Part shown: positions 2,790 through 60,316 of the stretch, one piece after another
How positions within the stretch are numbered: the first letter of the stretch is position 1
How the letters are laid out: the number at the start of each line of letters is the position of its first letter
Assembly (NCBI RefSeq): GCF_016903815.1
Contig: NZ_CP069973.1
Direction: 5' to 3' (one strand)
Source: Escherichia coli
Lineage (GTDB): Bacteria > Pseudomonadota > Gammaproteobacteria > Enterobacterales > Enterobacteriaceae
Length of the DNA stretch: 64,000 bases
Made by a program: the position numbers and the translations under genes
The notes under the pieces: generated by a model
What the model saw: the letters and a program-made list of their open reading frames with translations, nothing else
Databases searched by the model: none
What the model was told of the DNA's origin: nothing

Positions 2790-3520
2790 TCTTCTCTGCC
2801 GCTTTTTTTGTGCACAGAAAACCCCCAGCTAGGCTGGGGGTTCCGGAAAGCTTTCAGCTTTAAGCCAGTTATTAAAACCCCTTTTGATTTGTTAAAACAC
2901 CTTGCGGTCTGGCAACTGCAAGTGTCAAACAAGAAATCAAAAGGGGGTCCCAATGGGGAACGAAAAGAGCTTAGCGCACACCCGATGGAACTGTAAATAT
3001 CACATAGTTTTTGCGCCAAAATACCGAAGACAGGTGTTCTACAGAGAGAAGCGTAGAGCAATAGGCAGTATTTTGAGAAAGCTGTGTGAGTGGAAAAGTG
3101 TACGGATTCTGGAAGCTGAATGCTGTGCAGATCATATCCATATGCTTGTGGAGATCCCGCCCAAAATGAGCGTATCCGGCTTTATGGGATATCTGAAAGG
3201 GAAAAGCAGTCTGATGCTTTACGAGCAGTTTGGTGATTTGAAATTCAAATACAGGAACAGGGAGTTCTGGTGCAGAGGGTACTACGTCGATACGGTGGGT
3301 AAGAACACGGCGAAGATACAGGATTACATAAAGCACCAGCTTGAAGAGGATAAAATGGGAGAGCAGTTATCGATTCCCTATCCGGGCAGCCCGTTTACGG
3401 GCCGTAAGTAACGAAGTTGGATGCAAATGTCAGATCGTGTGCGCCTGTTAGGGCGCGGCTGGTAAGAGAGCCTTATAGGCGCATTTGAAAAACCTCCGGC
3501 TATGCCGGAGGATATTTATT
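2790..3520 (+). mobile_element. IS200 (IS200/IS605 family) insertion sequence, boundaries approximate
   Basis: Perfect hairpin cccccagctagctggggg (about 2822-2843), a second long stem-loop ccccttttgatt...aatcaaaagggggt spanning the tnpA ribosome-binding site, a 152 aa Y1 transposase and a right-end hairpin (cctccggctatgccggagg); the nagE-glnS spacer is about 0.7 kb longer than I recall for K-12. Confidence 0.85.
2953..3411 (+). CDS. tnpA: IS200 transposase TnpA (HUH/Y1 family)
   Basis: Translation MGNEKSLAHTRWNCKYHIVFAPKYRRQVFY...HIHMLVEIPP... with the HxH (HUH) motif; near-identical to Salmonella IS200 TnpA as I recall it. The ORF-track entry starts upstream at 2902; the ATG at 2953 is the homologous start. 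Confidence 0.9.
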   Translation: MGNEKSLAHTRWNCKYHIVFAPKYRRQVFYREKRRAIGSILRKLCEWKSVRILEAECCADHIHMLVEIPPKMSVSGFMGYLKGKSSLMLYEQFGDLKFKYRNREFWCRGYYVDTVGKNTAKIQDYIKHQLEEDKMGEQLSIPYPGSPFTGRK

Positions 3521-55368: not shown

Positions 55369-56535
55369 ATGAACTTACATGAATATCAGGCAAAACAACT
55401 TTTTGCCCGCTATGGCTTACCAGCACCGGTGGGTTATGCCTGTACTACTCCGCGCGAAGCAGAAGAAGCCGCTTCAAAAATCGGTGCCGGTCCGTGGGTA
55501 GTGAAATGTCAGGTTCACGCTGGTGGCCGCGGTAAAGCGGGCGGTGTGAAAGTTGTAAACAGCAAAGAAGACATCCGTGCTTTTGCAGAAAACTGGCTGG
55601 GCAAGCGTCTGGTAACGTATCAAACAGATGCCAATGGCCAACCGGTTAACCAGATTCTGGTTGAAGCAGCGACCGATATCGCTAAAGAGCTGTATCTCGG
55701 TGCCGTTGTTGACCGTAGTTCCCGTCGTGTGGTCTTTATGGCCTCCACCGAAGGCGGCGTGGAAATCGAAAAAGTGGCGGAAGAAACTCCGCACCTGATC
55801 CATAAAGTTGCGCTTGATCCGCTGACTGGCCCGATGCCGTATCAGGGACGCGAGCTGGCGTTCAAACTGGGTCTGGAAGGTAAACTGGTTCAGCAGTTCA
55901 CCAAAATCTTCATGGGCCTGGCGACCATTTTCCTGGAGCGCGACCTGGCGCTGATCGAAATCAACCCACTGGTCATCACCAAACAGGGCGATCTGATTTG
56001 CCTCGACGGCAAACTGGGCGCTGATGGCAACGCACTGTTCCGCCAGCCTGATCTGCGCGAAATGCGTGACCAGTCGCAGGAAGATCCGCGTGAAGCACAG
56101 GCTGCACAGTGGGAACTGAACTACGTTGCGCTGGACGGTAACATCGGTTGTATGGTTAACGGCGCAGGTCTGGCGATGGGTACGATGGACATCGTTAAAC
56201 TGCACGGCGGCGAACCAGCTAACTTCCTGGACGTTGGCGGCGGCGCAACCAAAGAACGTGTAACCGAAGCGTTCAAAATCATCCTCTCTGACGACAAAGT
56301 GAAAGCCGTTCTGGTTAACATCTTCGGCGGTATCGTTCGTTGCGACCTGATCGCTGACGGTATCATCGGCGCGGTAGCGGAAGTGGGTGTTAACGTACCG
56401 GTCGTGGTACGTCTGGAAGGTAACAACGCCGAACTCGGCGCGAAGAAACTGGCTGACAGCGGCCTGAATATTATTGCAGCAAAAGGTCTGACGGATGCAG
56501 CTCAGCAGGTTGTTGCCGCAGTGGAGGGGAAATAA
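55369..56535 (+). CDS. sucC: succinyl-CoA synthetase beta subunit
   Basis: 388 aa [18 protein letters not shown]... Confidence 0.95.
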
Positions 56536-57404
56536 TGTCCATTTTAATTGATAAAAACACCAAGGTTATCTGCCAGGGCTTTACCGGTAGCCAGGGGACT
56601 TTCCACTCAGAACAGGCCATTGCATACGGCACTAAAATGGTTGGCGGCGTAACCCCAGGTAAAGGCGGCACCACCCACCTCGGCCTGCCGGTGTTCAACA
56701 CCGTGCGTGAAGCTGTTGCTGCTACTGGCGCTACCGCTTCTGTTATCTACGTACCAGCACCGTTCTGCAAAGACTCCATTCTGGAAGCCATCGATGCAGG
56801 CATCAAACTGATTATCACCATCACTGAAGGCATCCCGACGCTGGATATGCTGACTGTGAAAGTGAAACTGGACGAAGCTGGCGTTCGTATGATCGGCCCG
56901 AACTGCCCAGGCGTTATCACTCCGGGTGAATGCAAAATCGGTATCCAGCCTGGTCACATTCACAAACCGGGTAAAGTGGGTATCGTTTCCCGTTCCGGTA
57001 CACTGACCTATGAAGCGGTTAAACAGACCACGGATTACGGTTTCGGTCAGTCGACCTGTGTTGGTATCGGCGGCGATCCGATCCCTGGCTCTAACTTTAT
57101 CGACATTCTCGAAATGTTCGAAAAAGATCCGCAGACCGAAGCGATCGTGATGATCGGTGAGATCGGCGGTAGCGCTGAAGAAGAAGCGGCTGCGTACATC
57201 AAAGAGCACGTTACCAAGCCAGTTGTAGGTTACATCGCTGGTGTGACTGCGCCGAAAGGCAAACGTATGGGCCACGCAGGTGCCATCATTGCCGGTGGTA
57301 AAGGGACTGCGGATGAGAAATTCGCTGCTCTGGAAGCCGCAGGCGTGAAAACCGTTCGCAGCCTGGCGGATATCGGTGAAGCACTGAAAACTGTTCTGAA
57401 ATAA
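56535..57404 (+). CDS. sucD: succinyl-CoA synthetase alpha subunit
   Basis: 289 aa; ATG overlaps the sucC stop (TAATG). Confidence 0.95.
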
Positions 57405-57504
57405 ATATCTGTAATAAGAAATAGCCCTCGCCGCTTCCCTCTACAGGAATGGCGAAGGGCTGTCGGTTTCGACATGGTTGGCCATCGTATGATGGCCTTT
57501 TTTA
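57405..57504 (+). ncRNA. sdhX: SdhX (RybD) small RNA derived from the sucD 3' UTR
   Basis: About 100 nt from the sucD stop to an intrinsic terminator (ggccatcgtatgatggcc plus T-run); position matches the known 3'-UTR sRNA of the sdh-suc operon. Exact ends not determinable from sequence. Confidence 0.6.
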
Positions 57505-57507
57505 TGC

Positions 57508-58230
57508 TTATCGCGATGATTTTCGCTGCGCTATCAGGGTAAATTTATAGTCATCAGTATTAAAAGCGTTGCGGCTATATTCAAACACCCGGCCATCAAC
57601 TAAATATCCACGCGATACTTTTTCAAGAATCGGCTTAGACTGGCTGATATTAAGCAGACGGCTCATCTCTTCGGTTGGCATCAGAGGAATGATTTCCTGT
57701 TCGCTACGATCGATAACCATTTTCTTCACTTCTTCAATAAAGTGATATTTCGAATTTTCCATAACCTGCCAGGTGAGATCCGGGAACAACGCAAGCGGCA
57801 TCCAGGTTTCTTCCAGCGCCATTGGCTTTTGCTTGCGATAGCGCACGCGCTTCACATGCCACACACGATCCTGCGCGATGATTTGTAGCTGTTGCTGAAG
57901 AAAATCGTCAGCCGGAATCACTTCAAATATCAGAACTTCACTGTGTGTATCGACGTGACGGTCCGACAGTTTTTCATCAAAACTGGTTAACTGAAAAATA
58001 TCGTAATTGACCCGCTCTTCTTTGACGTAAGTCCCGCTGCCCTGAATGCTTTCGAGGATCTGTTGCTCGACTAGCTGGCGCAAAGCCTGACGCACCGTAA
58101 CCCGGCTGACGCCAAACTTTGTTTGCAATGCCGATTCGGTAGGTAACGCATCGCCAGGTTTTAGCTCGCCACGCGCAATTTGCTCACGAATGCGATCGGC
58201 AATCTGTCGATATAAGGGTTTCCGTCCCAT
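57508..58230 (-). CDS. mngR: GntR/HutC-family transcriptional repressor MngR (FarR)
   Basis: 240 aa; N-terminal winged helix-turn-helix (VSRVTVRQAL) and UTRA effector domain. Confidence 0.9.
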   Translation of the reverse strand: MGRKPLYRQIADRIREQIARGELKPGDALPTESALQTKFGVSRVTVRQALRQLVEQQILESIQGSGTYVKEERVNYDIFQLTSFDEKLSDRHVDTHSEVLIFEVIPADDFLQQQLQIIAQDRVWHVKRVRYRKQKPMALEETWMPLALFPDLTWQVMENSKYHFIEEVKKMVIDRSEQEIIPLMPTEEMSRLLNISQSKPILEKVSRGYLVDGRVFEYSRNAFNTDDYKFTLIAQRKSSR

Positions 58231-58345
58231 TATTTAGCATCTCATTAATACGAATTTAGCCATTATGCACGATAAATTCATCCTGTAAATAATACAAATA
58301 CAATACAAATAATTTCAATCAAGTGAAATTGATCACATAATAGTA

Positions 58346-60316
58346 TTGTTTTATCGGGCACACTGGCGCGACTATAAAAACGATCAAGTGAGGATCATGA
58401 TGAACCTGACGACTCTGACCCACCGCGATGCGTTGTGTCTGAATGCGCGCTTTACCAGCCGTGAAGAGGCCATCCACGCGTTGACTCAACGTCTTGCTGC
58501 TCTGGGGAAAATTTCCAGTACTGAGCAATTTCTGGAAGAAGTGTATCGCCGTGAAAGCCTTGGCCCGACCGCCTTAGGTGAAGGGTTGGCTGTGCCGCAT
58601 GGTAAAACTGCTGCGGTAAAAGAAGCAGCGTTTGCCGTTGCGACACTGAGTGAGCCGCTTCAGTGGGAAGGCGTGGATGGCCCGGAAGCGGTTGATTTAG
58701 TGGTGTTGCTGGCGATTCCCCCCAATGAAGCGGGTACTACGCACATGCAACTGCTGACAGCGCTGACCACGCGCCTGGCGGATGATGAGATACGGGCGCG
58801 TATACAGTCGGCGACGACGCCTGATGAATTGCTTTCGGCGCTGGATGACAAGGGAGGCACGCAACCCTCAGCTTCTTTTTCCAACGCGCCAACTATCGTC
58901 TGCGTAACGGCCTGCCCGGCGGGTATTGCTCACACCTATATGGCTGCGGAATATCTGGAAAAAGCCGGACGCAAACTCGGCGTGAATGTCTACGTTGAAA
59001 AACAAGGCGCTAACGGTATTGAAGGGCGTTTAACGGCAGAGCAACTCAATAGTGCAACCGCCTGTATTTTTGCGGCTGAAGTCGCCATCAAGGAGAGTGA
59101 GCGTTTTAACGGCATTCCCGCGCTTTCAGTGCCTGTTGCCGAGCCGATTCGCCATGCTGAAGCGTTGATCCAACAAGCACTGACCCTCGAGCGTAGCGGT
59201 GAGACGCGTACCGTACAGCAAGATACGCAACCGGCGAAAAGCGTCAAAACGGAGCTGAAACAGGCGCTGTTAAGCGGGATCTCTTTCGCCGTGCCGTTGA
59301 TTGTCGCGGGGGGTACGGTGCTGGCGGTTGCGGTATTACTGTCGCAAATCTTCGGGCTACAAGATCTATTTAATGAAGAAAACTCCTGGTTGTGGATGTA
59401 CCGCAAACTGGGCGGCGGGATGCTCGGGATTTTGATGGTGCCGGTGCTGGCAGCCTATACCGCCTATTCGCTGGCAGATAAACCGGCGTTAGCGCCGGGC
59501 TTTGCGGCTGGACTTGCCGCCAACATGATCGGTTCCGGGTTTCTCGGCGCGGTCGTTGGCGGATTGATAGCCGGTTATCTGATGCGCTGGGTGAAAAATC
59601 ACTTACGTCTTAGCAGTAAATTCAATGGATTCCTGACTTTTTATCTCTACCCGGTGCTCGGTACGTTGGGAGCGGGCAGTCTGATGCTGTTTGTGGTGGG
59701 GGAACCTGTCGCCTGGATCAATAACTCGCTTACCGCCTGGCTGAACGGTCTGTCAGGAAGTAACGCGCTGTTGCTGGGTGCCATTCTCGGTTTTATGTGT
59801 TCCTTTGACCTTGGAGGGCCAGTGAACAAAGCCGCTTATGCATTCTGCCTGGGCGCAATGGCGAACGGCGTTTACGGCCCGTATGCCATTTTCGCCTCCG
59901 TCAAAATGGTTTCGGCATTTACCGTAACCGCTTCCACGATGCTCGCACCGCGCCTGTTTAAAGAGTTTGAAATTGAGACCGGGAAATCCACCTGGCTGTT
60001 AGGGCTGGCAGGTATTACCGAAGGGGCGATCCCGATGGCGATTGAAGATCCGCTGCGGGTTATTGGTTCGTTTGTGCTGGGCTCTATGGTAACGGGCGCT
60101 ATTGTCGGCGCGATGAATATCGGCCTTTCGACACCCGGTGCCGGCATTTTCTCGCTCTTTTTACTTCATGATAATGGCGCGGGCGGTGTTATGGCGGCAA
60201 TTGGCTGGTTTGGTGCGGCATTGGTGGGGGCTGCAATCTCGACTGCAATTCTCCTGATCTGGCGGCGTCACGCGGTTAAGCATGGCAACTATCTGACTGA
60301 TGGCGTAATGCCATAA
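58346..60316 (+). CDS. mngA: PTS 2-O-alpha-mannosyl-D-glycerate-specific EIIABC component
   Basis: About 650 aa with EIIA, EIIB ([15 protein letters not shown]) and EIIC domains; alternative in-frame ATGs at 58397 and 58400 follow a GAGGA motif, so the start is uncertain. Confidence 0.85.

Follow-up and report, generated by a model that had tools for sequence, protein, structure and literature searches.

The stretch of DNA analysed here, referred to as the window, comprises 64,000 nucleotides from Escherichia coli (contig NZ_CP069973.1), and near its right end the last cistron of the sdhCDAB-sucABCD operon converges on mngR. The sucA-sucB-sucC-sucD reading frames precede sdhX in the list of open reading frames, the sucD stop codon occupies 57402-57404, and the base next to it, 57405, is the first base of sdhX; the sucD 3'UTR is SdhX. 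The mngR gene is read from the opposite strand, its stop codon TAA appearing as TTA at 57508-57510 of the plus strand, and in the MG1655 annotation it lies two bases beyond the sdhX ncRNA gene. The features of this junction are as follows.

56535 to 57404, plus strand: sucD, last cistron of sdhCDAB-sucABCD, a reading frame of 289 amino acids annotated in K-12 and in other E. coli
57405 to 57505, plus strand: the full-length form of sdhX, about 101 nt, mapped onto the window from K-12 b4764 (765050-765150)
57423 to 57461, plus strand: the SdhX 5' hairpin, from folds of both strands
57462 to 57473, plus strand: a small hairpin of SdhX, from folding
57467 to 57503, plus strand: the short processed SdhX of about 38 nt, approximate (PMC6393394, PMC9438474), with a presumptive 5' end in E. 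coli
57468 to 57478, plus strand: the SdhX seed UUCGACAUGGU, named as such in PMC6393394 and invariant in 11 of 11 aligned species
57480 to 57497, plus strand: the terminator stem-loop GGCCAUC-GUAU-GAUGGCC, with 7 pairs of which 5 are G-C, from scan, fold and covariation
57498 to 57503, plus strand: the U tract (T6), with a mapped 3' end at 57503
57508 to 58230, minus strand: mngR, 240 amino acids, encoding a GntR-family repressor of mngAB, from reading frame and annotation, convergent on sucD and sdhX
57959 (K-12 765604), plus strand: a Rho-dependent termination region, inside mngR and antisense to it (as given in PMC7815308 supplementary file 2)

The RNA downstream of sucD is the E. coli SdhX sRNA, already annotated and already known. 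Its sequence (57405-57505) is identical to MG1655 sdhX (b4764) at 100 of 101 bases, the single mismatch (A in the window, G in MG1655) being at 57504 and past the U tract, and 321 bases around sdhX find a match with 95-100% identity in 5425 of 5426 complete E. coli genomes. Folding of the 101-nt RNA gives z = -4.67, and none of 200 shuffled sequences folds as well. SdhX is processed by RNase E from the operon mRNA into forms of about 101 and about 38 nt, binds Hfq, and represses ackA, fdoG and katG (PMC6393394, PMC9438474); the 5' end of the short form is taken here from the description of Salmonella SdhX2, and its place in E. coli is presumptive. The region of the 5' hairpin is Escherichia-specific and variable and contains the sequence that pairs with katG (PMC6393394), and the seed UUCGACAUGGU sits immediately before the terminator stem. 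The first-pass annotation had stated that SdhX is retained at this place and had suggested alignment with annotated sdhX as a check; the alignment agrees with it almost to the base. For sRNA biologists SdhX is a textbook case, and its presence in the window adds nothing.

Rfam searches of the whole window at gathering scores, and of 57300-57650 at permissive ones, gave no match to an SdhX family, and Rfam apparently contains no SdhX model; the only weak match near sdhX, to isrD (17 bits, E = 0.53), is a generic terminator resemblance. The one match above gathering score in the window is to STnc490 (146 bits; 2820-2943, plus strand), and the reading frame that follows it from 2954, beginning MGNEKSLAHTRWNCKYHIVFAPK, has the look of an IS200-type transposase. 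Together they are probably an IS200 copy that is absent from K-12 at that place.

An ordinary one-way intrinsic terminator, consisting of the stem-loop at 57480-57497 and the six U residues that follow, generates the 3' end of SdhX. The T run and the mngR stop codon are separated by a spacer of four bases (ATGC, 57504-57507), and the distance from the stem to the stop codon is 10 nt. A consensus terminator scan of 57000-58600 reported this single site, on the plus strand, against 1.4 expected in shuffled sequences, which is not significant; the scan is blind to bulged stems, and its silence on the minus strand is uninformative. The stem is paired in all 11 aligned species, and 3 of its 7 pairs show double compensatory changes (the variants include ATC/GAT, GCC/GGC, GCT/AGC and ACC/GGT), and 100% of alignment cells are paired as compared to at most 64% for slid registers. 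In K-12 a very strong plus-strand 3' end is listed by Term-seq at 765148 in three growth conditions (PMC7815308 supplementary file 1), which converts to 57503, the last U of T6, and an independent analysis, TRS, lists 765144-765154 as a terminus labelled 'Primary sucD,sdhX' (PMC10687069). K-12, rather than the strain of the window, is the source of all the experimental data used here, and the two sequences are identical save at 57504. Coordinates and Term-seq alike bear out the earlier claim of a strong terminator hairpin 4 bp from the mngR stop codon. The Rho-dependent region inside mngR is probably a backstop for read-through of the SdhX terminator, and its position at about 57959 suggests that some sucD-strand read-through is stopped before the mngR promoter and mngA.

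Complete E. coli genomes differ in what lies beyond this terminator. In 1544 of 5426 of them homology stops at window positions 57505-57510; in O157 mngRAB gives way to an island that carries LysR, cobO, a class I fumarate hydratase (fumarase), a dicarboxylate symporter and other genes, and in other mngR-less E. coli a TPR protein gene followed by cydA is found at the junction. SdhX is unchanged up to GGCCTTTTTTAT in the strains where other DNA takes the place of mngR, and since the terminator is unchanged without mngR it belongs to the sdh-suc operon, independently of mngR. We also considered whether the Escherichia-specific 5' hairpin came in along with mngRAB, and this was rejected: mngR-less strains keep the hairpin unchanged, and the homology break is at the SdhX 3' end and not 5' of the hairpin. 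A natural disruption of sdhX is present in E. coli FDAARGOS_944 (L004, 6170-6960), where an IS1 element interrupts the SdhX seed and is accompanied by a 9-bp duplication, TCGACATGG, leaving a sucD-side seed without terminator and a terminator-proximal copy severed from the operon.

The proximity of mngR had led the first-pass annotation to propose that the terminator acts bidirectionally and is shared with mngR, whose transcripts it would also end. The shortness of the spacer speaks for such an arrangement, as does its absence elsewhere. Among 38 loci with MngR relatives from other genera, 20 have sucD convergent on mngR (including Kluyvera, Pseudocitrobacter, Citrobacter braakii, several Enterobacter, Atlantibacter, Leclercia and Lelliottia), and in 16 of these 20 other species the mngR stop codon overlaps the T run, its TAA being made up of the two final T of the SdhX U tract and an A (GGCCTTTTTTA) with no spacer at all; E. 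coli mngR has two extra codons relative to the species whose stop codon lies in the U tract. The junction between sucD and mngR is fixed across loci L008-L038, and indels abound in the 5' part of the 3'UTR.

The two strands of the hairpin are nevertheless very different as termination signals. On the minus strand what comes after the stem is AACCAUGUCGAAAC, complementary to the invariant seed, and not a U tract; the minus-strand tail AACCAUGU (AACCAUGUCGAAACC) has 2 U in its first 8 nt, and the d-score of the hairpin at 57480-57497 is +30.7 on the plus strand versus -53 on the minus strand. These d-scores were computed with a formula of the d'Aubenton-Carafa 1990 type, combined with modern energies, and are approximate, with the plus-strand terminators as positive control. 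The same holds for the other genera: the plus-strand terminator has a positive d in 19 of 19 scored loci (+27 to +59), the minus-strand reading of the same hairpin has d no higher than -30 in every one of these loci for which the scan gave it, and a U tract is missing from that reading in all 20 enterobacterial species examined, its position being taken by the complement of the seed. A symmetric terminator has an A tract before the stem as well as a T tract after it, and here the upstream flank is ACATGGTT. No A tract lies 5' of the stem because the invariant seed occupies that place, and a canonical symmetric terminator is excluded because the seed is needed for the function of the sRNA.

The published K-12 maps of 3' ends on both strands, which had been named as a further check, give an SdhX end at 57503 on the plus strand and no mngR end at the hairpin on the minus strand. 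In the tables of Adams Term-seq (PMC7815308) and in the parts of the TRS tables (PMC10687069) that were examined, no terminus is listed between K-12 positions 765100 and 765139, and as tabulated the convergent 3' ends map apart (57503 on the plus strand, 57416-57418 on the minus strand), with some 60 nt between the hairpin and the minus-strand end. A collision mechanism, as proposed for convergent genes by Wang et al. (and reportedly by Ju et al. 2019), would need no U tract, and a hairpin can pause RNAP (bioRxiv 10.1101/2022.10.23.513370); at this junction a very heavily transcribed sdh-suc operon faces a weakly transcribed mngR (Table S1 values, PMC7373196). Against it, a minus-strand 21-mer recovered from cells (see below) spans the 5' arm of the hairpin together with the seed (57465-57485), and minus-strand RNA runs on past the hairpin. 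A ribosome stopped 10 nt upstream would also hamper folding of the hairpin. We consider it very improbable that 57480-57497 is a bidirectional terminator of sucD/SdhX and mngR, whether intrinsic or by collision, and for detectable RNA the idea is largely refuted already.

The features that bear on the fate of the mngR-strand RNA are the following.

57416 to 57507, minus strand: the mngR-strand 3'UTR, about 91 nt, antisense to SdhX over almost its entire length (from the TRS termini as listed)
57416 to 57422, minus strand: the tail AUUUCUU, after the minus-strand hairpin
57465 to 57487, both strands: a p19 duplex of 21-nt strands with 2-nt 3' overhangs (PMC7373196 Table S3)
58262 to 58318, minus strand: two promoter-like sites upstream of mngR, as consensus matches only

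A minus-strand terminus at K-12 765059-765068, with peaks at 765061-63, appears in three of the TRS lists under the label 'Antisense sdhX', with the upstream sequence ACCGACAGCCCUUCGCCAUUCCUGUAGAGGGAAGCGGCGAGGGCUAUUUCUU and a hairpin of -24.2 kcal/mol (PMC10687069). The peaks convert to window positions 57416-57418, about 60 nt beyond the SdhX terminator hairpin and 5-7 nt past the stem formed by the SdhX 5' hairpin (57423-57461) in reverse complement. The consensus scan passed over this long hairpin on account of its bulge, and as a termination signal with AUUUCUUAUU it is borderline, with d ranging from -8.8 when the stem is two bases shorter (tail UAUUUCUUAUU) to -21 with the full stem. The curated tables of Adams Term-seq list no minus-strand end at sdhX/mngR (PMC7815308), probably as a result of weak mngR expression and thresholded lists, and the SMRT-Cappable-seq supplements hold nothing for mngR or for the sdhX/mngR coordinates.

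The explanation that we think likely is that the two 3' ends are staggered, with SdhX ending at a one-way terminator and the mngR RNA reading through it to about 57417. The mngR RNA would cross the entire SdhX region and end about 91 nt after its own stop codon, at 57416-57418, where the end would follow the reverse complement of the SdhX 5' hairpin and then AUUUCUU. The locus would in this way consist of two staggered 3'-end signals facing in opposite directions and enclosing a zone of about 87 bp that is transcribed on both strands. The minus-strand RNA is most simply understood as the tail of the mngR mRNA; with less certainty, its end appears to arise either by weak intrinsic termination or by trimming that a hairpin stabilises, and 3'-end maps look the same for both.

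That the antisense RNA is the mngR tail is argued by the minus-strand promoter-like matches in 57000-58600, the only ones being the two upstream of mngR (58262-58318), and by a second p19 duplex within the mngR coding region (57525-57545; PMC7373196). It might instead be a separate transcript with its own promoter near the mngR 3' end, since the TRS pipeline classes the terminus as an orphan 'Antisense sdhX' and not as a primary mngR terminus in the lists concerned, and p19 minus-strand reads are numerous for a gene of such weak expression. The TRS label, however, follows from annotation priority rules, no minus-strand promoter-like site is present between 57000 and 58260, and the duplex at 57525-57545 fits one continuous transcript, and we regard a separate promoter as quite improbable.

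A rival account of the end itself, possible if doubtful, is that 57416-57418 is not a site of termination, and that mngR-strand transcription enters sucD, is stopped there by Rho or by collision, and is followed by exonuclease trimming back to the hairpin. Untranslated RNA, such as that past a stop codon, is favourable to Rho. The signal scores poorly as a canonical terminator, a minus-strand hairpin plus U tract is missing from most other genera that share this gene order, and mngR orthologues located away from sucD (loci L005-L041) likewise have no canonical intrinsic terminator within 160 nt. In the other direction, an end 5-7 nt after the stem with a tail in which 5 of 7 residues are U has the geometry of intrinsic termination, and Citrobacter braakii has a canonical minus-strand terminator at the homologous spot (CAGCCCUUGACU...AGUCAGGGCUG then UUUUUUUCUUA, d = +30.7). 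Supplementary file 2 of PMC7815308 gives no minus-strand Rho region at this place, its only entry for mngR being on the plus strand.

A conserved minus-strand terminator wherever mngR faces sucD was also considered and rejected, as it is clear only in C. braakii and borderline in E. coli. The C. braakii locus (L011) is a mirror image, with the minus-strand U tract overlapping the sucD stop codon and the SdhX U tract overlapping the mngR stop codon, and its two 3'UTRs are completely interleaved. Several of the mngR orthologues away from sucD abut apparent terminators of convergent genes that have an A tract before the hairpin.

With 3' ends at 57503 on the plus strand and about 57417 on the minus strand, SdhX and mngR-strand RNAs overlap by about 87 nt in the public K-12 data as listed. 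Perfectly paired duplexes of 21-22 nt with 2-nt overhangs have been captured in E. coli with p19 (Table S3 of Huang et al. 2020, PMC7373196), and one of them falls in this overlap, with strands that are recovered very asymmetrically: the plus strand UUUCGACAUGGUUGGCCAUCG has 259 reads and the minus strand AUGGCCAACCAUGUCGAAACC has 11,844 (PMC7373196). The plus-strand 21-mer maps to 57467-57487 and the minus-strand one to 57465-57485, over the seed and the 5' arm of the terminator, and because the minus-strand 21-mer cannot come from SdhX itself an antisense RNA must cross the hairpin. The duplex over the seed is an RNase III-type product and shows that cis-antisense pairing occurs in vivo. In the staggered arrangement the mngR 3'UTR and SdhX (or the sucD 3'UTR) would form dsRNA across the zone of about 87 bp, which RNase III would cut. 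The 5' end of the plus-strand 21-mer, 57467, coincides with the expected RNase E-made 5' end of the SdhX form of about 38 nt, and one edge of the duplex may come from RNase E instead of RNase III.

The earlier suggestion that the mngR 3' end is complementary to SdhX and might act in cis is thereby strengthened beyond what was proposed, the overlap taking in about 87 nt and not just the 3' region of SdhX, with a p19 duplex over the seed. The RIL-seq partner list of RybD/SdhX does not contain mngR, and in the full-text literature searched no paper was found with both SdhX and mngR, nor with both mngR and sucD. Public 3'-end and p19 data that have never been discussed for this locus indicate that in cells the mngR tail covers the SdhX seed, which is cut by RNase III.

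As to consequences, Table S1 of PMC7373196 gives about 1,600 for sucD versus about 15 for mngR, if its pairs of values, read here without a header, are sense and antisense total-RNA counts, and on that reading the SdhX-strand RNA is about 100-fold above the mngR RNA. If the mngR RNA is that scarce, its tail cannot titrate SdhX, and any effect of pairing would be expected to act on mngR and not on SdhX; it would run via loss of the 3' hairpin after RNase III cleavage. We think it unlikely that the overlap is a functional cis-antisense switch conserved in the Enterobacteriaceae. If it were, high expression of the TCA operon would lead SdhX or the sucD 3'UTR to pair with the tail of every mngR mRNA, RNase III would strip the mRNA of its protective 3' hairpin, MngR would fall, and the mannosylglycerate PTS encoded by mngAB would become easier to induce, such that the activity of the TCA cycle would be linked to the utilisation of a carbon source derived from an osmolyte. 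The overlap between mngR stop codon and SdhX U tract, conserved in many genera, would then represent selection for the coupling. A link between the TCA cycle and mannosylglycerate utilisation is a hypothesis that can be tested cheaply, and a caution follows for such work in that deletions of sdhX change the mngR 3'UTR as well.

Comparison with known systems places the two elements of the locus in different classes. The RNA of the window has the same position after sucD, the same seed and the same terminator as SdhX (RybD; De Mets et al. 2019; Miyakoshi et al. 2019, PMC6393394), with no difference in the RNA itself. All four features looked for in the window, namely the position next to sucD, the seed, the U-tract terminator and the sequence identity, were found.

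Bidirectional terminators between convergent E. coli genes are said to have been described by Ju, Li and Liu in 2019. The sdhX/mngR locus is like them in having convergent genes, an overlap that encodes a hairpin, and sharply defined 3' ends on either strand, but differs in that there are two hairpins about 60 nt apart, each tied to the end of one strand, and in that the plus-strand element is a normal intrinsic terminator. sdhX shows why the terminator of a 3'UTR-derived sRNA cannot be a bidirectional intrinsic one, as the seed lies where the A tract must sit.

The overlap of SdhX and mngR is rather an undescribed but unsurprising instance of overlapping convergent 3'UTRs. As in the RNase III-processed examples (Lasa et al. 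2011; PMC7373196; reviewed in PMC7821165) the 3' ends pass each other, and as in that class the dsRNA gives rise to duplexes of about 21 nt with 2-nt overhangs (PMC7373196). Both features looked for, 3' ends that pass and a duplex of about 21-22 nt recovered in vivo, are present at sdhX/mngR. The locus is unlike the usual members in that one partner is a characterised trans-acting sRNA with the duplex over its seed, and in an abundance gap of about 100-fold (from Table S1 columns interpreted without a header).

The cis-antisense partner of an Hfq-dependent sRNA has a precedent in SraC/RyeA, which lies opposite SdsR/RyeB and in which RNase III is involved. The mngR tail is like SraC/RyeA in being fully complementary to an Hfq-dependent sRNA from the opposite strand, with involvement of RNase III; it is unlike SraC/RyeA in being the tail of an mRNA and far scarcer than the sRNA, which makes a role as a sponge unlikely.
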